DNA from: Octopus sinensis
Taxonomy: Eukaryota
Assembly (NCBI RefSeq): GCF_006345805.1
Contig: NC_043011.1
Span: 9,734,001-9,798,000, forward strand
Direction: 5' to 3'
DNA length: 64,000 bases
Under the pieces are notes generated by a model. That model had not been told where the DNA came from, ran no database searches, and saw only the letters and a program-made list of their open reading frames with translations. Position 1 is the first letter of the stretch. The number at the start of each line of letters is the position of its first letter. The translations under genes and the position numbers were made by a program. Positions 6,363-60,197 of the stretch are shown here, piece by piece.

Positions 6363-8743
6363 CTTAGAAAGGTTTTGGCCAGTATTGGCCCAGGCCATGT
6401 CTAACTTAATAGCACCACCTGGCGAAGTCTTTCAATTCAGGATTTGGGCACCAAGGCCCATTCGAGCAGAGAGTTATTGTTTGAGGAGACATATCCGGGT
6501 GTGGGTGGTTTGTCTGGAACTGTTTGAAGGAATTTGTCCAAAGACTTCTTGAATTTTGTGTGGTCAGTTTCTGTTTTGACGTGTCCTGGTGTGATGTTGA
6601 AGAGAGCGGGTCCAATTGAGGTGAAATAATTGTGCCGTATTGTTGTTATGAGATGCGATTTAGATTTTTGTTGTGGACGGATGGCACGGGGTCCAAGTCT
6701 TGGATGTATTTTGAAGGTGATACCAACATCATTTGGACAGTGCTGATGGAATATTTTCCACATCATACAGATAATGTAGCATTCACGGCGTCGTTGGAGT
6801 GAATACAGTTTCAGCTTTTCCAGTCGACCCCAGTAATCAAGGTCTGACATGCCATCTATCTTTTTCGTGATTGACCTTTGGGGAGCTTCAACTTTCATAA
6901 TATTCCGTTTCATGTAGGGAGACCACAATGGACAGCAGTATTCAAGGTGAGATCGGGCAAAAGTGGAGAAGAGAAGGAGAATGGTGTGGGAATCTCTCGA
7001 CTGGAAGGTTCTGAGAATCCAGGAGCACATTCTGCGGGCCATGTCAACTTTGCTGCTTATATGTGTAGCCCAGCTTATGTTGTTGTCCACAGTTACTCCC
7101 AAGTTTCTGATGTTGTTAAACGCCATGAGAGTTTCACCAGAAGGAAGGGAGTATGGGAGTTTCAGAGCGTCCTCCCTTCCAAAGTGGATCAATTCGAATT
7201 TGTCTTCGTTTAGCAACATGTTTTTTTTTCCGCCCATTGGACAACAGCCAGTAGGTCTGACTGAAGGTTTATCCGGTCATCCATGCCATTGATGACCTTC
7301 TGGAGCTTGGAATCATCAGCGAAGATTCTGATGTTACTGTATTTGATGATATCAGTAATATCATTAATGTAGATGATGAAGAGAAGTGGGCCCAACACAG
7401 AGCCTTGTGGGACACCACTGCTGACTTTGGCTGGGCTGGATTTGACTCCTTCGACTACAACATGTTGGGTTCTGTTAGACAGGAAGCACTTGATCCACTG
7501 CAGCAGCTTTCCAGTGACACCAATATTGACAGCTTTCTCAAAAGGATCTTATGATCAACCCTGTCAAAGGCCTTGCTGAAATCAAGGTAGATGACATCAG
7601 TGTTGGAACCCTCTCCCAAGGCTCTCAAAATGTCATCGAAGTGATGCAGTAGCTGCGTCAGGCAATCCCTTCCATTACGGAATCCATGCTGGCTGGAGTT
7701 CAGCATATTATGACTCTCAAGGAAGTGAGTCATACGCGATCTCACCACTCTCTCAAATACCTTAATGATATGAGAGGTGAGTGAGATTGGACGGTAATTC
7801 ACGGCAAGGGATTTGTTTCCTTTTTTGAAAACTGGGACAACAGACTGGGATAGAAGGTCTCCTTGTATATATCCAGCATCCAGTGAGTTCCGCCACAGAT
7901 TGGCTAGAGGGAGTGCAAGTTGGTGTTGACACATCTTCAAGACACAAGCAGGGAACCTATCGGGACCTACTGCTGAATTATGCTTCATTTCCTTTATTGC
8001 TGCTAAGACATCAGGAGCGCCAAAGGTTATGTCCGATAAAGTGTATTGGGGAGTAACATCAGTGATACAGCCCAGATCAGCCATATCAGGATTGCTGAAA
8101 ACAGAGCAGTATTGTTTCTGCAACATCTCTCCCATGGTTTTGGCATTGTCTTGAAGAGTACCATTTTCATCAATCAGAGGGCCAACAGTAGAACCAGTGA
8201 CTCTGTGTAATTTTGCAAATGAAAAGAACACTTTGGGATTGAGTTTGATCTTCTCAATGGCCCAGGACTCTTCAGCTCTTCTCTGACTATTGATGATAGA
8301 CATCATGTTGTTTTGGAGGTTATGTTTTTTAATCTCTAGTGACGTGATGGCAGTCAGGTTGGTGTGTTGCTGTTGACAGTATTTCAGCTTGTTGATTTTT
8401 TTGTTAATTCTTTTAATTTTCCTGATGAGAGATTTTCTATTTCTAGGGATTCTGCACTTAGATTTGTTTGCAGATCTTAATGGGGTGTGGTTTGCACATA
8501 TGTTCGTAATGGTGTCTACAAATGACTGCCAGGACTTTTTGATGTTAGTGGGTGTGTATGTGTGTGTGAAGGACCAATCGACTTGTGCAAGATCATTATT
8601 GATCGCTTCCCAGTTTGCATTGTGGAAATCCATAGTGTCAAATGGATGAACAGGAGGGATGACATTTGTTTTGCATTTTGGCCGGTGAAATCTCAGATCA
8701 CAGAGAACCATGTCATGGTCGGAGAGTAGAGTTTTCTCCACTG

Positions 8744-8745
<2 letters not shown>
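6362..8745 (-). mobile_element. 5'-truncated CR1/L2-group LINE with frameshifted reverse transcriptase
   Basis: ORFs 7455-8741, 7210-7398 and 6437-7237: NYRPISLTS, QHGFR, YLDFSKAFDRVDH, LGPLLFIIYIND, FADDSK, LEYCCPLWSP, LYSLQRRR. (TA)n on both sides. Confidence 0.92.
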
Positions 8746-8779
<34 letters not shown>

Positions 8780-8782
8780 TTA

Positions 8783-8813
<31 letters not shown>

Positions 8814-8822
8814 ATATATATA

Positions 8823-9215
8823 CTAGCAGTATCGCCCGGCGTTGCTCGGGTTTGTAAGGGAAATAATTATATAAGCATTTTTAGAGATGTAAAGTATAAT
8901 AGCCATCTCAATATGGCTAACCACAAAGGGGGAGGGGTGTTACTGTAGCTTTTTACGTTCTGAGATTTATAATAAATTTTAGAGAGTTACTTCCCTTATA
9001 AATGTCAAAAATGGATTAAAAATGGGAAAAATTGATGGTAAATTTTTTTTTAAATCGTAGACTCATCGTAGACGCGTGCTAATACCCAGACGGTCTCGAT
9101 ATGAATCACGACTATAAGATACCCGGTTTTGGTTAACTGCACCGCAAAATGTGGGAGTAGTTAGGAATCTAAATCGTAGGAGACAGACACACAACCTCAC
9201 TTTTATATATAAAAA
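8823..9215 (-). mobile_element. Non-autonomous Helitron (left arm of palindrome)
   Basis: Reverse complement of 9781-10173; CTAG terminus at 8823-8826 next to a GC-rich hairpin. Confidence 0.8.
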
Positions 9216-9456
9216 TTTCCTCTATTTACATAATATTGAGGTCTCTTTCTTTCTTTTGTTATCTTACTGTTTTTACCAATATACATATATATATATTATA
9301 TAAATATATATATAGTTACAGAGATGTACTTGCATAGCAAGTGACTTGATCTGAGATTGTGTGCTGGAACGAAAACAGTTGCAGCGTTGAAGGTGTTTAT
9401 AAGCCATTTAAGAAACACACAAAAACCGTTAGATTCACTTCAACATTTAAATTTAA

Positions 9457-9507
9457 TTTGCCAAAATATTTTCGTCGCTTTGAGACCGCGACCTGTTCAC
9501 TGACAAA
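9457..9507 (-). ncRNA. Predicted minimal type-I hammerhead ribozyme, G3-C8 variant
   Basis: Minus strand UUUGUCA-GUGAACA-G-GUCGC-ggucucaaa-GCGAC-GAA-AAUAUU-U-UGGCAAA: 7-bp stem I (one G-U), 5-bp stem II, palindromic stem III. Confidence 0.68.
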
Positions 9508-9780
9508 AATATCGTGCTAACAGGTCGCGGTCTCAAAGCGATGAAAATATTTTGACAAATTAAATTAAATGTTGAAGTGAATCTAATGGTTTTTGTGTGT
9601 TTCTTAAATGGCTTATAAACACCTTCAACGCTGCAACTGTTTTCGTTCCAGCACACGATCTCAGATCAAGTCACTTGCTATGCAAGTACATCTCTGTAAC
9701 TATATATATATGTATATTGGTAAAAACAGTAAGATAACAAAAGAAAGAAAGAGACCTCAATATTATGTAAATAGAGGAAA

Positions 9781-10173
9781 TCTTTATATATAAAAGTGAG
9801 GTTGTGTGTCTGTCTCCTACGATTTAGATTCCTACTACTCCCACATTTTGCGGTGCAGTTTACCAAAACCGGGTATCTTATAGTCGTGATTCATATCGAG
9901 ACAGTCTGGGTATTAGCGCGCGTCTACGATGAGTCTACGATTTAAAAAAAAATTTACCATCAATTTTTCCCATTTTTAATCCATTTTTGACATATATAAG
10001 GGAAGTAACTCTCTAAAATTTATTATTAAATCTCAGAACGTAAAAAGCTACAGTAACACCCCTCCCCCTTTGTGGTTGGCCATATTGAGATGGCTATTAT
10101 ACTTTACATCTCTAAAAATGCTTATATAATTATTTCCCTTACAAACCCGAGCAACGCCGGGCGATACTGCTAG
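9781..10173 (+). mobile_element. Non-autonomous Helitron (393 bp)
   Basis: A|TCTTTATATATAAAAG 5' end, subterminal hairpin CCCGAGCAACGCCGGG, CTAG|T 3' end, no target duplication. Confidence 0.85.
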
Positions 10174-10387
10174 TCTATGTATATATGTATGTATGAGCCT
10201 ATGAGGGAGATCCCTACATGGCAGCTAGACCTGGTAGAAATAGCAGCCAAATTTCCCCCAAATCACACCTTACTGTCTTATCTATGTATATATGTATGTA
10301 TGAGCCTATGAGGGAGACCCCTACATGGCAGCTAGATATGGTAGAAATAGCAGCCAAATCTCCCTCAAATCACACCTTACTGTCTTA
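10174..10387 (+). repeat. 107-bp direct tandem duplication
   Basis: 10174-10280 and 10281-10387 differ at a handful of positions. Confidence 0.93.
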
Positions 10388-10394
10388 TCTTTCT

Positions 10395-10906
10395 GCTACT
10401 TGGATATAGGTGTTATATTCGTCGTAAAAAACTTTCCTGTCACACACTCACGCACACGCACACACACACACATACACACACACGCACCCTCACACACACA
10501 CACACACGCGCACACCCACACACACCCACTCACACACACGCACGTTAGCTTACAATTTTATTTATATATTTGCGTGTCTATGTGTTGAAAGAGGAAGTGG
10601 GAGGCAGAGTGAAAGAATCACTCACTACAGTAAGTCAATTACTTCATTTTATTCGTTGCCCACTGTGTGTGTGCGTTTGCGTGTGCTGTAAACCAGACTA
10701 AGAAAAGCATTTGACACACACACCAGAATGTGAGTTTTCTGTAAATTTTGCTTAACTGGAGTTTAAATTTTAAAAACTGGACCTGGCATGACGCGATGCA
10801 TTGTTCTCTAAAAATGCAAGGTAAATTGTATTGAAGAAATCCTATATTGTAGATTTGTATAACTCCCAAAGGGAGGCAGATAAAATCTGCCTTTTATAAT
10901 AAGAGA
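10395..10906 (-). mobile_element. Probable 3'-truncated non-autonomous Helitron of a second family
   Basis: Minus strand starts A|TCTCTTATTATAAAAG, similar to the 9781 terminus, followed by hairpin GGCAGATTTTATCTGCC. No CTAG end found; left boundary approximate. Confidence 0.5.
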
Positions 10907-10934
10907 TATATATATATATATACATATGTATCTA

Positions 10935-10974
<40 letters not shown>

Positions 10975-11140
10975 GTATCTATATATATATATTTATATAT
11001 ATCTATATATATATACATATATACATTATATATATATATACATATGCATCTATATATATATTAATATATATATATATATTATATATATCTATATATCTAT
11101 ATATATATACATATATACATTATATATTATATATATATAC

Positions 11141-11183
<43 letters not shown>

Positions 11184-11261
11184 ATATTATATTATATATA
11201 TATTTATATGTATCTATATATATCTATCTATAATCTTATATATATATATACATATATACAT

Positions 11262-11312
<51 letters not shown>
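10907..11312. repeat. Imperfect (TA)n microsatellite
   Basis: Direct inspection. Confidence 0.95.
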
Positions 11313-11316
<4 letters not shown>

Positions 11317-18710: not shown

Positions 18711-18922
18711 CTTTCTACTGGAGGCACAAGGCCTGAAATTTGGGGGAGGGGGAGAGTCGATTACATCAACCCCAGTGTTTAACTGTACTTCATTTATTGA
18801 CTCCTGAAAGGATGAAAGGCAAAGTCAACCATGGCAGAATTTGAACTCAGAACATAGTGGCAGACGAAATACCACAAAGCCTTTCGCCTGGCATGCTGGC
18901 AATTTTGCCAGCTTGCCACCTT
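18711..18922 (-). mobile_element. Nin/Deu-domain SINE
   Basis: Reverse complement of the 11807-12020 family; adjoins a long (AAT)n tract. Confidence 0.85.
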
Positions 18923-21217: not shown

Positions 21218-21430
21218 TCGAGCTGGCAGAACCGTTTGCTGGGCGAAATGCGTAGCCGTATTTCGTCTGCCATTATGTTCTGAGTTCAAATTCTGCCGAG
21301 GTCAACTTTGCGTTTCATCGATAATTTAAGTACCAGTTACGCACTGGGGTTGATGTAATCGACTTATTTCATTTGTCTGTCCTTGTTTGTCCCCTTTATG
21401 TTTAGCCCCTTGTGGGTAATAAAGTAATAT
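21218..21430 (+). mobile_element. Nin/Deu-domain SINE with a variant tail
   Basis: CGAGCTGGCAGAACCG..TGAGTTCAAATTC..AAGTACCAGTT; tail differs from the 11807 copy. Confidence 0.8.
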
Positions 21431-23147: not shown

Positions 23148-23429
23148 TACAATTTCTTGGTTTGTTTTATTGCCTAGTTTTCCAATATTTTAGAATTAGG
23201 ACCCCTTCAGCTGACAAAAGCTTTTTCTCCATAAATATTCTGAAGAAGAGGCCCTAACTCTTAAATATCATAACCCAGGTAAACTAGTCCTAACCATTGG
23301 CTCATATTATCCATTTTTATAACTTGTGTTGTTTGGGCTTTAAAATAATACTTAAAACATATATATATATATATGCGTGTGTATACATATATATACATAC
23401 ATACATACATATATATATATACATACATA

Positions 23430-23472
<43 letters not shown>

Positions 23473-23474
<2 letters not shown>

Positions 23475-23685
23475 ACAGCACGGACTTTGTCAGTGAACAG
23501 GTCGCGGATTTTAGCGGATTTTAGCGACGAAAATATTTTGACAAATTAAACTTAAATGTTGGAGTGAATCGAACGGCTTTTGTGTGTTTCTTAAATGGCT
23601 TATAAACACCTTCCACGCTGCAATTGTTTTCGTTTCAGCACACGATCTCAGATCAAATTACTTGCTATGCGAGTACATCTCCGTA

Positions 23686-23686
<1 letters not shown>
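23473..23686 (+). mobile_element. ~210-bp hammerhead-bearing element (Penelope pseudo-LTR or retrozyme-like)
   Basis: Colinear with 9519-9700 and with the reverse complement of 9313-9518; (TA)n on both sides. Confidence 0.7.
23486..23545 (+). ncRNA. Predicted minimal type-I hammerhead ribozyme, G3-C8 variant
   Basis: Stem I TTTGTCA 23486-92 / TGACAAA 23539-45; core GTGAACA 23493-99; stem II GTCGC 23501-05 / GCGAC 23524-28; GAAA 23529-32; predicted cut between 23538 and 23539. Confidence 0.7.
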
Positions 23687-23720
<34 letters not shown>

Positions 23721-23751
23721 CATATATACATATACATACATATATATATAT

Positions 23752-23792
<41 letters not shown>

Positions 23793-23834
23793 TATATATA
23801 CATACATATACATACATATATATATATACATACA

Positions 23835-24020
23835 TCATCATCATCATCATCATTTAGCGTCCGCCCTCCATGCCAGCATGGGTTGGACGGTTCAACTGGG
23901 GTCTCTGAAGCCAGAAGGCTGCATCAGGCCCAGTCTGATCTGGCAGTGTTTCTACGGCTGGATGCCCTTCCTAACGCCAACCACTCCATGAGTGTAGTGG
24001 GTGCTTTTCACGTGCCACCC
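23835..24020 (-). mobile_element. RTE-type 3' tail fragment
   Basis: Reverse complement of the 2880-3059 tail; (CAT)n at its left end. Confidence 0.88.
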
Positions 24021-24087
24021 GCACATATACATACATATATATATGCATACATATACATACATTATATATATATATATACATACATAT

Positions 24088-24136
<49 letters not shown>

Positions 24137-24718
24137 ATATGCATACATTTATATATATACATAATATATATATGCATACATATATATATATACATATATA
24201 TATACATATACATATATATATACATATATATATATACATACATATACATATATAATATACATATATATATACATATACATATATATATACATATACATAT
24301 ATATATACGTACATATACATATATATATACATACATATATATACATATACATATATATATACATACATATACATATATATTACATAATATATATATACAT
24401 ACATATATATATACATACATATATAACATATAGTATATACATATATACATACATATATATATACATACATATATATACATATATATATACATATATATAT
24501 ACATATAATATATATATATACATATATATACATATAATATATATATACATCTATAATATATTATATATGATATATATATATAATATAATATATAGTATAT
24601 ATATATATATATACATATTATATAATATATATACATATATATATATACATATATATTATCATATATATACATATATATATATGTAATATATATACATACA
24701 TTATATATACAATTATAT

Positions 24719-24759
<41 letters not shown>

Positions 24760-24806
24760 ATATATATATATGTATATATATAATAATACTATTATATACA
24801 TATATG

Positions 24807-24868
<62 letters not shown>

Positions 24869-25272: not shown

Positions 25273-27044
25273 ACTCTTTTACTCTTTTACTCTTTTACTT
25301 GTTTCAGCCATCCGGCTGAGGCCATGCTGGGGCACCGCCCTTGTTGCTACCCTCTCTAAGTCCAGTTTGCCGTGGCTGGCCACTGATCTAAGAGAGAGTT
25401 TGTAGCTGCTGCCCTTAGGTTACCTTCGTACCTCGCAGTGGGTTCATCTGGGATCCCGGAAAGCAGCTTGTCTAGATGTTTTTTGAAAATGTCCACATCC
25501 GCATCATGTAGATCTCTTAGTTTTCTTGGCAGTTTGTTGAACAGCTGAGGGCCCCTGAACCCCAGGCTATTACAGTATCTGCTCCTTACCCTGGATGTGG
25601 AAGACGGGACCTTTGGCACCACACAGTGACGTCCTGTACGGGGATTGGAACAGCTCTCAATTCCAAAATTTGGTGCTAGTCCCTCCAGGATTTTCCATAT
25701 GTATATCACTGCATATCTCTCTCGTCTTCGTTCCAAGGAGTACAAATTGAGTTCCCTAAGCCTCTCGCAATAGTTCTTTTCTTTCATGATGGAAATCCTC
25801 TTGGTGAAATGTCTTTGGATTGTCTCAAGCTCTGTGGTTAGTTTGACACTATGCGGTGACCACAGTTGGGAGCAGTAGTCCAGGCGGCTTAGGACAAATG
25901 TCCTCCATAGTGTCAACATGGTCTCGCAGTCTCTTGTCCGGAATGTCCTCAGGATCCAGCCAGTGAGTCGTCTGCACATTGTCGCACCCTTCGCGATGTG
26001 TGAAGAAAAAGATGCATCGTCACTCATGTCTATCCCCAGGTCCCGTATTGATTTCGATACTGGGATTTCAATCCCTCCTGGACCAGTATAGTTGTGTTGT
26101 AATGTATATGTGTTTACAGCTTGATATTGTAAGGCTTGAAATTTACCAGCATTAAATTGCATGTTGTTGTCTTCAGCCCATTTGTATATGGCATCCAGAT
26201 CTTGTTGTAAAAGGTCAGCATCAGCTGGGTTTTTGATTGCCTGTGTTACCTTTGTGTCATCAGCATAGCTAGTGAGGGATGTTGTTTGTGCTACCAAGGG
26301 CATGTCAGAGAGCGCCACCAAAAACAGCAAGGGTCCCAAGACTGTGCCCTGTGGCACCCCGCTTGCTATTGGTGTCTTTCCCGAGAGGGCTCCATTGGCT
26401 GCAACCATCTGGCTTCTGTCCTTCAGGAAGTCATGTATCCACTCACCTACTTTTCCTGTTATGCCGAGTCTGAGTAATTTGTGACATATCACTCCGTGGT
26501 CGACTTTGTCAAAGGCCTTCGCAAAGTCGAGATATACCACATCCACCTGTGAGCGATCCAGTAGTTGTTTCAGTACCCAGTCGTAGTGTTGTAACAGCTG
26601 CGTAAGGCAGCTTCTTCCTGGGCGAAAGCCATGCTGTGTGTCAGTGAGACGGTTAGTTTCTTCGAGGAACGTGATCAGTTTTTTTATGATGATTCGTTCC
26701 ATGACCTTACTTATGTGTGACGTCAGGGAGACTGGCCTGTAGTTTTTGGCCTCTGCTCTACTCCCTCCTTTGTGGATAGGGCATATGGTGCCTTCTTTTA
26801 GCGCCCTGGGCAGTTTACCGTTAGCCAAGGAACCACTGAAGAGCTCCTTCAGTGGTCCCGCTAGGGCATGCCTGCATGCTTTTAGGAGGACTGCTGGGAA
26901 TCCATCTGGTCCAGCAGCTGAGTTTATTCTCATTTTTCTATGGCAGATATTACATCCCTCTCTGTTATGTCTATGTGGTCGATGGTTGTTGTTGGTTTTG
27001 GAGTGTTGTGGCATCAAAGAAAACTTCTGGGTTTGTGATTTGCA
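25273..27044 (-). mobile_element. 5'-truncated CR1/L2-group LINE with long open RT frame
   Basis: ORF 25356-27017, short 3' UTR ending (GTAAAAGA)n, flanked by (TA)n. Confidence 0.95.
25356..27017 (-). CDS. Non-LTR reverse transcriptase, 5'-truncated (first ~25 aa probably out of frame)
   Basis: AAGPDG, NYRPVSLTS, QHGFRPGRSC, YLDFAKAFDKVDH, GVPQGTVLGPLLF, YADDTK, RDLGI, LDYCSQLWSP; no internal stops. Confidence 0.85.
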   Translation of the reverse strand: MMPQHSKTNNNHRPHRHNREGCNICHRKMRINSAAGPDGFPAVLLKACRHALAGPLKELFSGSLANGKLPRALKEGTICPIHKGGSRAEAKNYRPVSLTSHISKVMERIIIKKLITFLEETNRLTDTQHGFRPGRSCLTQLLQHYDWVLKQLLDRSQVDVVYLDFAKAFDKVDHGVICHKLLRLGITGKVGEWIHDFLKDRSQMVAANGALSGKTPIASGVPQGTVLGPLLFLVALSDMPLVAQTTSLTSYADDTKVTQAIKNPADADLLQQDLDAIYKWAEDNNMQFNAGKFQALQYQAVNTYTLQHNYTGPGGIEIPVSKSIRDLGIDMSDDASFSSHIAKGATMCRRLTGWILRTFRTRDCETMLTLWRTFVLSRLDYCSQLWSPHSVKLTTELETIQRHFTKRISIMKEKNYCERLRELNLYSLERRRERYAVIYIWKILEGLAPNFGIESCSNPRTGRHCVVPKVPSSTSRVRSRYCNSLGFRGPQLFNKLPRKLRDLHDADVDIFKKHLDKLLSGIPDEPTARYEGNLRAAATNSLLDQWPATANWT

Positions 27045-27050
27045 TATATA

Positions 27051-27098
<48 letters not shown>

Positions 27099-31832: not shown

Positions 31833-32268
31833 AAGAAAGAAGTGAAGCATAGATGATTGCCAGTAGTTGGTGAAGCAGAAGAAGGGATTCCATTCTGTCC
31901 CAAATAGTTCTCTGCTATCAATTCTGATAATCTGCACTCCATAATTTACTTTAAATAGAAATATTTTCTCTGACCAACTAAACTAAGACATTCTGGTGAA
32001 TTTGCCAGGAACTAATAACAGAGTCAACTCTGAAATTATGAAGGCATTGGTATTTCAAGAAGATTATAGTTTCCAATGAACTAAGAAATAAACTCAAACT
32101 TTCATGGCTTCTTCTGTCCCCAACTGAAATTACACCAAAATTTTTCCCCTAATAACAGTCTTTCTTTCTTTTTCTGTATTTCTCGAAACGGAAAATAAAT
32201 TTATATCATTATATGTTTTATTTTTTTTTGTTCGCAATTCTTTGGGTATCTTTATTTTTAGCTTATAA

Positions 32269-32360
32269 ATTTGTCCATGACTAAATCATGTCATTATACA
32301 TACATGATATATATATATATATCATGTATGTATAATGAGATGATTTAGTCATGGACAAAT
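32269..32360. repeat. 92-bp palindrome centred on (TA)n
   Basis: ATTTGTCCATGACTAAATCATGTCATTATACATACATGAT pairs with its reverse complement with one mismatch. Confidence 0.95.
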
Positions 32361-32365
32361 ATATA

Positions 32366-33222: not shown

Positions 33223-34654
33223 TATATATATACACACACACACACACACAAAACAACAATGTGTGGTGGCCAAGATGAATGGATTCTGGCAACCAATGGC
33301 ATACTCAAGGTGGCATTCCTCAGGTGGACAAGTCTGTTCATTGCTACAAAGGAGTTAAGGTATTGTGGTGTAAAACATCAAGACAGAAACTGCAGCCAAA
33401 CGTGCTCTGAAGGTGGATGGGGAGAAGGACGCATCCTCTTGTCAAGATCCCCAACAGAAGTAACAAGATTAATGAAATAATTTTGAAGAGATCAAGAAAC
33501 ATCATTGATACACTCCATTGCTTGTTTGGAAGTTAATTAAAGTGTAAATTAATGAAGCAGGAATTGAGAGAAATTAGTTTAAATAAGAGAATGGTTACCA
33601 TGGAGATAGTATTGGTTGTTATTTGTGACACATACATACCAGGGTACATATGGATCTGGGGTACAACCAGATCTGCAATACATACACATTGCCTAATGAA
33701 GAGAATCACTGCTGATGAATGTGGAATTAACCATGATGATGATGATGATGATGATGGTGGTGGTGTGAGTGATAGTTGGTGATACATGTTGATTTGATTG
33801 CACAAAAAAACTCACTAATAACAACAACAATAACAACAGCAGTAACAGGCCCAGAGAGGAACCTTTAAAAAGTTAACAAATCTGCTAAAAAAAGCAGCCA
33901 GCTCCCCACCCCCCAGACCACACCTTACTGTCTTAAAAGGGACGGTGACATTGAAAAATGTAATCTGAGATGCACAACCAACGCCTGAAGAGAGGACTAC
34001 TCTATCAGTATTGCCTGGGGCTAAACAACAAAACAACAGGAAGAGGAGGATTTCTCTCTCACACACATCTCATTGGTTACCAACCAGCATTGAACACACG
34101 ACAGTGAAAGACATCATAACAGCTGCAGCGTCTCCAGATCCAGTGAGCAACCTGGCAGAAGAACCATTTGGAAGGTACTTGGAATATTTTAAAGCAACGA
34201 CTACAACAACAATGATGTGGCAGACAAAAAAATGGAAATATGGGAAAAGAAAGTGAGAAGAATTCTGATCAATTTTCCAATTTATTGAAGTGTTTAGAGG
34301 AAGAACAAAGGAATCTGTTTATGGAGATGTAATTATGTGACTGGGTATACACACATGTGTATATTATTGTATATATACTTATGTGTGTGTATGTGGTGTT
34401 TTTGATGTATGAGAACTAACACAATATTTCATTCATGCCTTTTCATGTCTGTTTTACCATGTTTGCATGGGTTAGATGCATATATCATTGAGGTATTGTT
34501 TTACAGCTGGATGCCTTTCCTGCCATTAACCCTCCTTACCTATTTTTCAAGTAAATGGTCTCTTGTTCCACACAACATTAAAGGCACAAAGTGAACAGGT
34601 GATTTGTTGTGAGGAGAGGACTGACTATCTCAAAATCACCGTAACACCACCACC

Positions 34655-35795
34655 ATAGCTTCCGATACCTAGGTACCAAGTCAGTAGTGGGGGTGGGTCT
34701 ACTGAAAGTGTAGATGCTAGAATAACAATAGCCTGGGCAAAGTTCAGAGAGCTCTTACCTCTGCTAGTGACAAAGGGCCTCTCACTCAGAGTAAAAGGTA
34801 GACTGTATGATGCATGTGTACAAACAGCCATGTTACATGGCAGTGAAACTTGGGCCGTGACTGCTGTGAACATGCGTAAGCTTGCAAGGAATGAATCCAG
34901 TATGATCCGATGGATGTGTAATGGATGTGCATACTCAACAGAGTGTAAGTACCTTGAGAGAAAAGTTGGATCTAAGAAGCATCAGATGTGGTGTGCAAGA
35001 GAGACGACTGTGCTGGTATGGTCCTGCGGTGAGAATCGATGTGGATAGCTGTGTGAAAAAGTGCCACACCCTAGTGGTTGAGGAAACCTGTGGAAGAGGT
35101 AGACCCAGAAAGACCTGGGGTGAGGTGGTTAAGCATGACTTTCAAACTGAGGCAATGACTAGTGACCGGGACCTTTGGAAATATGCTGTGCTTGAGAAGA
35201 CCTGGCAAGCCAGGTGAGACCATAACCCGTGGCCTCTGCTAGGGGTGTAACCAGCCCACTTATGCATACCTTTCCTTCATTGGACACTAAACTCTGCTTG
35301 CTAAGACCTGTTAAGGCAAGTGAAATCAAAATCAAATTCGATGACTGGCATCCGTGCTAGTGGAGCGCTAAGAGCACCATCCGAGTGTGATCGTTGCTAG
35401 AGCAGCTGACTGGCTTCCGTGCTGGTGGCATGCAAAAAGCACCATTCGAGCGTGATCGTTACCAGCATCGCCTTACTGGCACCTGTGCCGGTGGCATGAG
35501 AAAAGATATTCGAACAATGTCATTGCCAGTGCCACTGGACAGGCTCCTGTGCAGGTGGCATGTAAAAAACACCATTTGAGCATGGCTGTTTCCAGTACCA
35601 CCTGACTGGCCCTCATGCCGGTGGCATGTAAAAGCACCCATTACACTCTTGGAGTGGTTGGCATTAGGAAGGGCATTAGAAACTCTGCCAGATCAGTTTG
35701 GAGCCTGGTGCAGCCATCTGATTTGCCAGTCCTCAGTCAAATCATCCAACCCATGCCAGCATGGAAAGCAGACATTAAGCGATGATGATGATGAT
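34655..35795 (+). mobile_element. 5'-truncated RTE LINE, diverged subfamily
   Basis: TKGLSLRVKGRLYDACVQTAMLHGSETW, GRGRPRKTW; 3' UTR repeat array 35345-35640; (GAT)n tail. Confidence 0.92.
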
Positions 35796-55631: not shown

Positions 55632-58600
55632 TATGCATATAATATATATATATTTATATATACATAGATTCAGATGAATTAGGTACTTAAGTTGAATCAC
55701 CAAAAATTGTCCATGCAACTTCAAAATAAGGTGAATAAAATCAAAATAAGCAATAATCAACTCTGAATATCCTGTAGCTTAGTTTGATTATATAGTTGCT
55801 GTGTTGTGACCTTGAACTAGAAACCCCATGGTCACAAAGCGGTCTTGTTAAACACAAAGCCACAACTATAAATTTCAACAGCAGAAGAGACTTTGTGCAT
55901 AACTAAAACAGAATAGATCTGTTTCATTGATATTTTGAGAAGAGATTTTTAACTTTGAGTTGCTTTATGATGGAATCAATAGAAGAAGTATTTTCATTTC
56001 TGGCTTTTGTGACTTGCATTCATCAAACATAAAAGACACACAACAATGCTGTTGGTTGATTCCTTTTCAAGGAAACTGGACAAACTGGCATGGGCCAGGC
56101 AAAAGTATAACTCTTTGTCCATTTGTCAATGAAGCAATGGAGTGGTGGTCATAATTCAGTGGTCAAAAAAAGTCAGCAATGGGAGGAAATATATTGACAA
56201 TAAAAAAAAAAAAAAGCAAAGATCGAAACACTTCCTGGTTTGATATGTTTGACAATAGAATTGGTTGGAATGGGACATAGTTGCATGATGTGGTGAGTGG
56301 AGGTTGCAAGGCTATAAAGGGATGGAGCGCATTCAGGGAAGCAACAGCGCCAGGAAGTGTGTTGACAACGGTGAATGGCTGTTGGTGGTGATTGGACTGA
56401 ATTTAGTGGTTGTTTTGTTGACTCCTTCAGATATAATACGGAATGGGACAAAGAGAGAGAGAAGGGTTAGGGTACAGAGGAGAGGAGGTGGGAGTGCAAA
56501 AAGAAATGAAAAGAAACAATAAAGACCTGTCATTCAATAGAAATTACAGAAAGTGGAGCCATTTTATGTTATATGCACACACACACACACACGCGTGCGC
56601 ACACACACACACAGTCCTTATCATCATTGTTGGCTTTACCATGCTAGCATGGATTGGACAGGTTATACAGACACTCACTCTCTGTGTAGATACAAACATA
56701 TATATATTTGTGTTCCTATTTCAAGATACCAAGTGTATGTGTGTAAGAAATTTCCTATGAAATTGCTGCAGGAAAATTGCCCGGCAGACTTTTAGTAAAG
56801 GCAATATATCCAACCAACAATTTCCCAATTAGTAAATTTGCCTTGAAGCAATTAAGCAATTAACAATCCGCCAATGGTAATTTATTAATTAATGTCAGGA
56901 TTTCAATAAAAGATTGAAAAATAACAAGGAAACTTTAATCAAAATAAAAAAATTATGTTTAAAAATGCAAATTTTAAAAAGATTTCTAAAGCAAGATGTT
57001 ATGAATGAAACTTGTTCAGTATGGAATGGTAAATCTGTTTGACTTTTAATCTACCACAAGACTTTTTATTCTGGCAATGCTGTGATATTTTCTTCTTGCT
57101 TAAGGAAGTTCTTGTTAAATGGAGAATTTCTCTCCATGACTTTTCTACACACCTTAAACTGAATATCAATTCCACATGAAGGAACTCACCAAACTGCCAC
57201 AGTCAGCAACCCACTTGTCTATCTTTCATCGCACAGCATATCTAGTGTACCTGTTAGTGTACTCTAGAGGTACTCTTTGGAATTCCTGCTTATTTATCTG
57301 TTCACTGAATGTGGCCACCCTCCAACACAGCAATGGAAAAAGTTTTCTTTCATTACAAACTGAAAGTTTAAGTTCACTTTGCTGCAACCAGCCATTTTAG
57401 GTTTTTGCTTCTCTGGAATTTCTTCTCAATTTGTGTGCTGAGGTCTATATAATAAATGATCAATGAAGTAAATTTATTGATTTCTAGCTTTGAATTTTGG
57501 TCATGCTGCAGGAACACTTTTATTATAGGGGATTCTGGTTCTTATTTTATTGGCCCCAGAAAGAAAAAAAAAAATAATAATAAAATCGACCAGGTTGGGT
57601 TTTAAACACAGAATGTAAAGGGACATCACTAAATAGCACAAATTATTTTGTCTGATGCTCCACCAACTATATACCCTTTAGCCATGTAAGAGACTCTGTC
57701 AAGACTCCTGACTCAGGAATCCTCCAAACATGGCGGATTATCAAAAGATAGACTATTTGGATCTGGATCACAGAAATCTTTTACATTTTTCTAGAAACTT
57801 CTAAGTTCTGACTGAATCAATTCACACTGACAACAAAAACCAAATAAAAACAGCAAAAATTAAAACAATTCTTAAAATTACTCTAAAATTGATTTATTTT
57901 TCAGTAAAATTATTGATTTTCCTTGGCCATTTTAAAAACAAGAATTAAATTATCTGTTAATATTTTTTTTGTTTTCAGAAATAACAGTTTGTCGAATTTC
58001 AAGTTTGGCATAACCCAATAATTCTACCATTAAGTACCCTAAATGCAATTTCTGTTGACTAGTTTTACCAATGGTAACTAGATTAAGGGTGGGAGGTACA
58101 ACAATAACCAGGTACAACCTGATGTGAAAAGGGAGCTTAATAAAGCGAAATAGTTTTGTCTGGAATGGAGATGAGAAGAGGAGATGACCGAGACGACGGA
58201 AATAAATATGACCGTGGGGGGGGGGTATAGAAGCAGATAAAGTGATGATGATGATGATGATGATACAAGTTTGGTTTTGATATTTATGTTGTCTCAGTCA
58301 TTCCATTTAAGTTGCACATAACCCCCAGATTGTGTGTGAGCATGTTTGTGTGTGGTAGTTGCTACTTTGTCTGTGTAAGAGTGTGTGTGTGTGTGTGTGT
58401 GTTTACACTCAGCGTATTGTAGGGTTTCCATTATCACAACAGACAATGAACATTTTACTTCAAACCTGAAATACCTGACATATTGTTCCATATTTACACA
58501 GAACAACTGGTCGGGTGGAGACAAAGCAATGATTTCCATCAACAAAATTAAGCTGAGGGAGAGAAACCATTCCACTTTGGTAAAAGTCCAATCAATTATG

Positions 58601-60197
58601 ATGCCAATTCCAAAAAACCACAACATCCAAATATCTTTCTTTTTTATCTTTTGAAAATATATTTGGAATTTATTTTGCTATTTTCTTGTTTTATTATAAA
58701 AATTCTCCCACCATCAAGGGATTAGACAATAAAAACAACAACAACAACACTAAATGTTTAACTTCATAATTGGAGTGCATGTGTGTGTATGTGTGTGTTG
58801 TGTGTATGTGTGTGTGTGTGTACGTGTGTGTTGTGTGTATGTGTGTGTGTGTGCGTAATACATTAACACACATGAAGTCACATTGCCAACAGACAACCGA
58901 CCATTCCATATCCTCAATCTACAAAACAAGATGTATTTCCGCAAGATCAGTTGACGGAATGGAGAGCGAATGCAACATGGAAATTGGTCTTATTAATGGA
59001 GGAGAGAGTTAAATAAATAGCAGCAGATACTCACTCTGAGTTATTAGCAATACTCACTCTCCGGTGTGAGTGATACACACACTGAGTATGAGTGAGAGCT
59101 TGGTTCAAATTATGGAGGTCAACATAAATTAAGGGGAAATAACAATTTAGATGAAAATTATATCCATTTCCAGGAGATGCTATTGAGGGATCTTTAAAAC
59201 AACCGGGACCCCCTCCACCCACCTTATCAGCTCTAAACATTTTGATTGTCAGAAGAAGACAACAAAAATTTCCAAAAATATTTTCAAAAGAGAAAAAAAA
59301 TAAAATAAAATATTTGGATGCTGAAGGATTTTGTAACTAATTGGATTCTTACTAAAGTGGAATGGTTCCTTTCAGATTCATCTTAAAGAAAGAAATCTCG
59401 GCTGTGTCTCTACCAGCCTCACCACTCACACCATCACCATCACCACTAATCAAGTCTTTTTTTATTGCCACAAGATATTGTAACCTTGAGGGAGCCACTT
59501 TGTAGTCATCTGATCTGTTAGAAATAGCAACCAAATCTCCTTCAAATGAGACCATTATCTGAGAATGTGGTCTTAAGGTTCCTTTTACATACAAAAAAAA
59601 AAAGACTGGATGGTTATGGCTGGAATGTCTGTGAGCCTGGGTCTGTGTGATCAGAGCTGACTTCAGTAAAACATCAACTGCAATCCTAAAAAAATATTTG
59701 AGGCTACAGAAATAGGACTATATTCTCCAGCTGTTTCATTAGAGACTTTAATTATTAAGAAGTAATTAACCACCATCATTACTGCATCAGACTGACTTCC
59801 ACACCTACAACAACACCTCAATTATCTTTGACATTTTCAGGTGTGGGTGTTTGCATGCACATGTGTGTGTGTGTGTGTGTGTGTGTACATACACCCACAA
59901 AGTTAGAGATACTTCTTAAAAATATAATCCTTTTCCAATCAGATTAAGGCTGATTAGCTGGCCAGTGGCTAGCTAATCAATAATAATAATAATGACATCT
60001 AACTGAAACACAAGACCACAACTTTGAAGGTGGGATACTTACATGGTACTTGCCTTATTGACCTTGGAATCAGGTAAAGTTGATCTTAGCAGGCTTTGAA
60101 CTTAAATTGTAAAAGACATGAAACTAAATATGGTTCCAAGCAGCACCCTTTGATGGTGGTGGTGGTGGTGGTGGTGGTGGTGGTGGTAGTAGTAGTA

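Follow-up and report, generated by a model that had tools for sequence, protein, structure and literature searches.

Helitrons are recognised by a 5'-TC, a CTAG-3' end, a hairpin shortly before the 3' terminus and insertion between an A and a T of the target (PMC4778049; PMC6544945). The Helitron Rep cleaves single-stranded DNA precisely at the 3' end of the element and joins CTAG to the 5'-TC (PMC4778049); about half of the recovered Helitron circles had imprecise junctions (PMC5876387), and new ends of Helraiser have been described as arising at the 3' side (PMC4778049). Octopus vulgaris contains recently active members of both Helitrons (8 families) and Penelope-like elements (31 families) (PMC13282606), and (TA)n is the preferred target of the Naiad and Hydra families of octopus (PMC8557442, supplement). 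For the minimal type-I hammerheads of Penelope-like elements, the natural covariation reported within the core is U3-A8 (PMC4209133; PMC3088659), while a laboratory double mutant, C3G/G8C, is partly active (PMC11167929; PMC3884650).

In a 64-kb stretch of DNA from Octopus sinensis (hereafter the window), these two known kinds of repeat are united in a palindrome of ~1.35 kb, which is a real, single and young inverted duplication. Its parts, and the sequences that bear on its origin, are as follows (a slash marks the border of an element):

8746-8822, no strand: (TA)n/(TATC)n microsatellite that holds the donor Helitron and abuts a 5'-truncated LINE
8823-9215, minus: donor (left) non-autonomous Helitron, 393 bp, with 3' CTAG/T and 5' A/TT
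9216-9284, no strand: unique 69-bp segment upstream of the Helitron 5' end, present in the two arms only
9285-9314, no strand: (TA)n at the inner element's 3' end; exceeds that of the right arm by 19 nt
9315-9518, minus: donor inner element, ~204 bp including the 21-nt spacer, which is its 5' part
9457-9507, minus: minimal type-I hammerhead-shaped motif of the left arm, from descriptor and fold
9498-9518, no strand: 21-nt spacer without a duplicate, proposed as the loop of the snap-back; its homologue is the 5' part of the third copy
9519-9700, plus: copied inner element, 5'-truncated within the hammerhead core
9701-9780, plus: copied short (TA)n and 69-bp segment
9781-10173, plus: copied (right) Helitron, A/TC to CTAG/T
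10174-10185, plus: acceptor end, starting with TC, 10/12 identical to the Helitron 5' end and 10/12 to the donor-side TA tract
10174-10387, plus: 107-bp tandem duplication with 5 differences, starting at the distal-junction base of the palindrome
23472-23687, plus: third, single copy of the inner element, with (TA)n on both sides and a complete G3-C8 motif at 23486-23545

The left arm (8823-9497, 675 nt) and the right arm (9519-10173, 655 nt) align end to end around the spacer, and each comprises a 393-bp Helitron-like element, 69 bp of other sequence, (TA)n and an inner element of ~183 bp. The alignment bears out the sequence-only reading, which had described a 1.35-kb palindrome with head-to-head Helitrons whose symmetry ends within one base of CTAG on both sides: both arms terminate at the Helitron CTAG/T, the exact symmetry reaches one base further (A8822 and T10174) and then breaks, and no target duplication was found at the palindrome ends. 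Past the break a loose symmetry resumes in TA-rich sequence (10/12). Of the arm composition given in that reading, the Helitron, the 69 bp and the (TA)n stand, whereas the hammerhead does not, as neither arm has a canonical one and the non-canonical motif is whole only on the left. The window contains no second copy of the whole palindrome, no further copy of the 393-bp Helitron beyond the two arms and no other copy of the 69-bp segment. As RNA, the region is predicted to fold into a single stem of ~650 bp, a trivial consequence of the symmetry that agrees with the double-stranded RNA of this length anticipated earlier for the case of transcription.

The arms differ by 10 substitutions in 654 aligned columns, seven of them transitions, as well as by three 1-nt indels, all in or beside short runs, and the 19-nt difference in (TA)n, while the outermost 95 bp are identical. 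Four of the ten substitutions fall on CpG sites, which account for 48 of the 654 positions (binomial p = 0.004). Divergence is even along the arms (6/393 in the Helitron vs 4/252 in the remainder; Fisher p = 1.0), as expected from one event. Compared with the third copy of the inner element, each arm carries changes of its own, and together with the CpG transitions these point to biological age, a pattern that mis-polished alleles would resemble. With the calibration of JC 0.09 to 25 My (PMC13282606), the sequence divergence would place the separation of the arms roughly 2 My ago.

Both Helitron copies end in CTAG followed by T without target duplication, in agreement with the classical form (CTRR-3', then T), and the right copy also begins with the classical 5'-TC, preceded by A (A/TC at 9781). 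The sequence-only reading spoke of a normal TC start; the left copy instead begins A/TT, which is likely a TC mutated after the duplication. A hairpin of 16 nt (10146-10161), where Helitrons have one of 16-20 nt, ends 12 nt before the Helitron 3' end, this being a predicted fold of -4.5 kcal/mol that 67 of 200 shuffles match. The interior holds five short inverted pairs, none of which joins the two termini, and the lack of terminal and subterminal inverted repeats speaks for a classical Helitron as opposed to a MITE or Helentron. The CpG observed/expected ratio is 1.14 for the Helitron vs 0.36 for the window, which fits a young element with a Rep that may not yet have lost its activity. Exact patterns for the Helitron end and for the hammerhead matched no stretch in bacterial or archaeal genomes, as expected.

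The window is AT-rich, microsatellite-dense DNA with 463 open reading frames of at least 55 aa, of which 364 are of high complexity. Among the 300 of these 364 that were scanned with Pfam, there were RT and zf-RVT fragments as well as weak matches below the curated cut-offs, and neither a Rep-helicase (RepHel) gene, nor an ORF with RT and GIY-YIG linked to the inner element, nor a host gene was found. The LINE at 6440-8744 (minus) is 5'-truncated and frameshifted and retains RT as well as the last part of an endonuclease domain; its two best relatives come from Argonauta hians (50-52% identity). In tblastn with 11 of the 120 listed LINE relatives it halts at 8744, at the microsatellite holding the left Helitron, and on the far side of the palindrome it was not picked up again within 5.5-16 kb, so that it is unusable as a marker of the empty site. 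Another LINE has a 566-aa open RT frame with (AT)n flanks (25359-27056, minus), and 736-987, 2634-2898 and 35373-35638 each hold an array of roughly four units of 62-66 bp close to RT fragments, which makes them instances of a recurring element whose interior contains a minisatellite. Dispersed repeats also form two older inverted pairs, the partners lying within 5 kb of each other (18755-18888 with 21242-21364, 79% identity; 58514-58687 with 59253-59414, 68% identity). Very long degenerate (AT)n tracts span 10906-11316 (~410 bp) and 24025-24866 (~840 bp), the later part of the 10174-10387 duplication resembles dispersed repeats at ~33880-33935 and ~59512-59553, and a 102-bp palindrome of 96% identity (32264-32365) in which no Helitron ends were seen is centred on (AT)n and has (TA)n after it.

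The inner element is, to judge from its sequence, likely a non-autonomous Penelope-like piece. Its 3' ends in the left arm and in the third copy lie within one base of each other and run into (TA)n, which corresponds to the (TA)n insertion with a fixed 3' end of Penelope-like elements. The third copy has a CpG observed/expected ratio of 1.55, and 10 nt of its loop II are duplicated in tandem; both arms share two CpG transitions relative to it, and none was seen in the opposite direction, a count considered for whether the inner element may have preceded the duplication. The first bases of the right flank, which may be the true 5' end of the inner element, match the third copy over a stretch that is short and of low complexity. 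Four inner-element probes of 12-13 nt were absent from the supplement text of PMC8557442, in which line breaks can hide matches. A non-LTR retrozyme was considered and rejected, since a retrozyme by definition consists of units in head-to-tail tandem that each contain a type-I hammerhead (bioRxiv 10.64898/2026.07.22.740005), and the copies of the inner element are single or inverted.

In the hammerhead-shaped motif of the left arm, stem I is formed by 9507-9501 pairing with 9463-9457 (7 bp), the core G3-U-G-A-A-C8-A9 occupies 9500-9494 and is followed by an extra G, and stem II is formed by 9492-9488 pairing with 9478-9474 (5 bp), after which come GAAA, a palindromic helix III and U17, with a predicted cut between 9464 and 9463. 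The motif is complete in the left arm and in the third copy, where the 7-bp stem I and the 5-bp stem II are both part of the minimum-energy fold, the fold energies being unexceptional (20/200 and 28/200 shuffles as good). It is incomplete in the right arm, which is without the 5' strand of stem I and G3-U4-G5 and has C11.1 changed to U. A canonical hammerhead ribozyme is ruled out: the canonical core CTGANGA (CUGANGA in RNA) is absent from both arms, its one site among the matches listed for 8300-10600 and 23300-23900 being at 8422, outside the palindrome, and a scan of the window with Rfam gave no match at the gathering score, nor was any of the 13 matches with E<=10 in 8000-11000 a hammerhead. 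A descriptor for a minimal type-I motif with any Watson-Crick 3-8 pair and one extra base matched the window exactly twice, at 9500 (minus) and 23493 (plus), while 300 block-wise dinucleotide shuffles gave 0.037 matches per window at threshold and 0.003 at the observed stem lengths, figures that are flattered by the descriptor having been written after the motif was seen.

Both complete copies have a G3-C8 Watson-Crick pair where the consensus has C3-G8, together with G10.1-C11.1, the palindromic helix III and the extra base after A9. This base, G, is outside the H of the consensus, yet it is present in the Nasonia row and in Hydra-1_Obim. G3 occurred in none of the 44 rows examined of the alignment in PMC4209133, and a natural G3-C8 hammerhead was not found in the portions of the literature searched, in which the papers examined describe laboratory variants. 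Between the third copy and the common state of the arms, stems and core show no difference in 42 positions vs 11 in 141 downstream (one-sided p = 0.052), while in loop II four of nine positions differ and there is one indel. Two separate copies of the motif agree with the minimal type-I consensus of Penelope-like elements, the core pair being swapped, and the motif is a predicted hammerhead. Within the palindrome it is predicted to be silent, because it would be enclosed in the long duplex of any read-through RNA.

The spacer gives the duplication its polarity. Its match is the 5' part of the third copy; the right arm does not have it and starts inside the hammerhead core. Being common to the left arm and the third copy and missing from the right arm, it identifies the left arm as donor and the right arm as copy. 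The earlier reading was right to see an inverted copy made locally, with its end at the 3' terminus of the Helitron, and Rep is a serious suspect; the ~290 bp said to have been captured upstream of TC are in fact 262 bp (9519-9780). The left arm was likely reverse-copied once, giving the 655-nt right arm. When the copy is removed, spacer and A meet T10174 in the reconstructed allele and form an A/T site without duplication. An inverted repeat, a retained spacer and a nearby source, which characterise template switches, are all present, and from the sequence the event would be a 3-2-1-4 switch in the terms of PMC5453318.

That the copy arose by a snap-back step, common to the two readings considered first, is probable. 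As the best explanation for its closure we propose, tentatively and as a judgement from the sequence of one locus that falls short of an even chance, that Rep sealed the snap-back copy at the Helitron CTAG. Before the event 9518/9519 and 10174 would have been adjacent, and Rep would have nicked an A/TC look-alike of its own 5' end at this position. The freed 3' end would then fold back over the 21-nt loop, with ~1 bp of priming, and synthesis of ~655 nt would proceed through the inner element, (TA)n, the 69 bp and the Helitron in the sense direction, until Rep cuts the new strand at CTAG and joins it to the TC end that it still holds. The resulting CTAG/TC junction would resemble that of Helitron circles, and the inner element would be a passenger. 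A hairpin preformed in the spacer was also considered and is unsupported, as the loop has no favourable fold (-0.6 kcal/mol; 138/200 shuffles as good).

The distal end fits Rep chemistry better than chance. The copy ends exactly on CTAG/T, and the acceptor starts with TC and resembles the Helitron 5' end; AT sites that start with TC and have at least 10/12 identity to this end number 20 of 13,097 in the window, and 15 of 1,653 (0.9%) among TA-rich AT sites, the feature having been chosen post hoc in both counts. Further support comes from the polarity, from the evenness of divergence expected from one event, from the CpG ratio, which suggests a young Helitron, and from the 107-bp tandem duplication, which begins on the junction base. 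Its units differ at 5 of 107 positions vs 10 of 652 for the arms (p = 0.047), a weak hint that duplication and palindrome are of different ages. On the other side, the junction is also among the top microhomology sites, the look-alike is 12 bp long where the cleavage determinants of Helraiser extend up to 40 bp, the 300 ORFs scanned hold no Rep-helicase gene, the snap-back loop is without a favourable fold, and the pre-event allele is a reconstruction. Moreover, the centre lies at the 5' border of a Penelope-like element, where inverted copies are a hallmark (PMC8557442), and the Helitron-free palindrome at 32264-32365 indicates that such structures form without Rep. The prior for Rep sealing is low, since no report of Helitron-made palindromes was found in the portions of the literature searched; the text searched of PMC13286980 (on a wheat Helitron) and PMC6155905 held nothing relevant.

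The same snap-back may instead have been closed by the host, a close rival that we place only slightly behind Rep sealing and likewise below an even chance. Here the end that folded back would be a break or a stalled terminus where the inner element begins on its 5' side, possibly even the cDNA end left by the Penelope-like insertion, and host repair would have closed the copy by annealing the TA tract next to the Helitron with the TA-rich acceptor; the CTAG end would then follow incidentally from the Helitron's place in such a tract. The TA tract beyond the donor CTAG is identical to the acceptor at 10/12 positions, and upstream of the junction there is a further 5-nt match across a 1-nt bulge, which 558 of 39,798 sites (1.4%) reach. 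For microhomology the junction is eighth among 2,954 candidate return points along the donor path (best 0.5%). The 3-2-1-4 switch and its mirror case make up 31% of the high-confidence human-chimp events (PMC5453318), Penelope-like insertions typically carry inverted 5'-truncated copies near their 5' end (PMC8557442), and minimal hammerheads have been reported in pairs on opposite strands, 100-700 bp apart (PMC4209133). The second palindrome in the window, being free of Helitrons, suits host closure as well, and the 107-bp duplication could come from serial slippage. However, 13 other return points on the donor path are equal or better, all in TA tracts, and remained unused, three of them lying earlier on the path; microhomology alone would therefore hit the Helitron terminus about once in 14 cases. 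Host closure also leaves the exact CTAG end and the TC acceptor as coincidences, the events in PMC5453318 are short compared with 655 nt, and a host flank is not described for the inverted Penelope copies in the text available of PMC8557442.

An assembly artefact, in which a fold-back chimeric read was polished to different alleles in its two arms or joined via the Helitron repeat, is improbable. The 1.5% divergence of the arms could be allelic, CpG-rich transitions would look alike in that case, and the three 1-nt indels in or beside short runs would suit it; against this, the spacer is genomic and not adapter, the changes relative to the third copy are private to each arm, and the right flank keeps the TA-rich context expected beside the inner element.

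Quite improbable is the cryptic start proposed in the sequence-only reading, by which Rep would have begun 282 bp upstream of the normal 5' end and inserted the product 21 nt away on the opposite strand. It would yield the same product, an A/T site without duplication and a precise CTAG end, and upstream DNA has been found joined in aberrant Helraiser junctions formed from single-stranded DNA donors (PMC5876387), but the copy begins with AACAGG/ACAGG, without TC or any likeness to the Helitron 5' end. Helraiser requires its 5' end and had 5'-TC in all sequenced integrants, with no local hopping recorded among 701 events (PMC4778049). If two members of one Helitron family had inserted separately in opposite directions and a template switch had then copied what lay between them, both canonical CTAG/T ends would follow from ordinary chemistry, and the reconstructed site would be a normal A/T target; this is very improbable, given that the Helitron parts show no more divergence than the inner ones, that the outer 95 bp are identical and that the 64 kb hold no other family member. 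Finally, the symmetric termini without target duplication had led to the suggestion that the palindrome moves as a unit with two CTAG ends, which is scarcely credible for a structure with an asymmetric centre, a single copy in the window and no outward 5'-TC end, as required by Rep (PMC4778049).

If Rep did seal the palindrome, this would be an undescribed way of building palindromes and a second Helitron route to genome rearrangement, producing local palindromes with capture of upstream sequence. Long hairpin RNAs would then be made in animals with heavy A-to-I editing. Should the natural G3-C8 hammerhead family be true, the covariation of the core would extend beyond U3-A8, and the standard CUGANGA descriptors would undercount ribozymes in Penelope-like elements. 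A 2017 paper reportedly deals with Penelope hammerhead variants and may bear on the novelty of G3-C8. The joint claim, that Rep nicks look-alikes and seals snap-backs into upstream-capturing palindromes and that octopods carry a dispersed hammerhead of the Penelope type with G3-C8, is unlikely to hold in full. If host repair closed the palindrome, what took place between the two young repeats would be a template switch that is long but otherwise ordinary, and the hammerhead variant would be the one notable feature.

Set beside the known systems, the Helitron arms resemble non-autonomous Helitrons of the Helraiser/Helibat type in the 5'-TC, the CTAG-3', a predicted hairpin 11-12 nt before the end and the A/T target without duplication (PMC4778049; PMC5876387). 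Unlike these, the second copy at this locus is inverted, lies 21 nt from its donor, starts without TC and includes 262 bp from upstream of the 5' end, whereas the capture known from these sources is on the 3' side. With the 3-2-1-4 switches and fold-back inversions of PMC5453318 the palindrome shares the inverted repeat, the un-inverted spacer and a return beside the leaving point, but it involves 655 nt instead of tens of bases, and the return coincides to the base with a transposon terminus. As in the inverted truncated copies of Penelope-like elements (PMC8557442), two copies lie 5'-to-5' at (TA)n targets and one of them is truncated; here, however, both copies share the host flank and the Helitron, which a twin insertion would not, and, in contrast to Penelope-like elements, no RT or GIY-YIG ORF is linked to them among the 300 ORFs scanned. 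The motif itself agrees with the minimal type-I hammerheads of Penelope-like elements (PMC4209133) in stem I, the extra base after A9, G10.1-C11.1, GAAA, the tiny palindromic helix III, U17 and the U-rich 5' and AU-rich 3' flanks, and it departs from them in its G3-C8 core.
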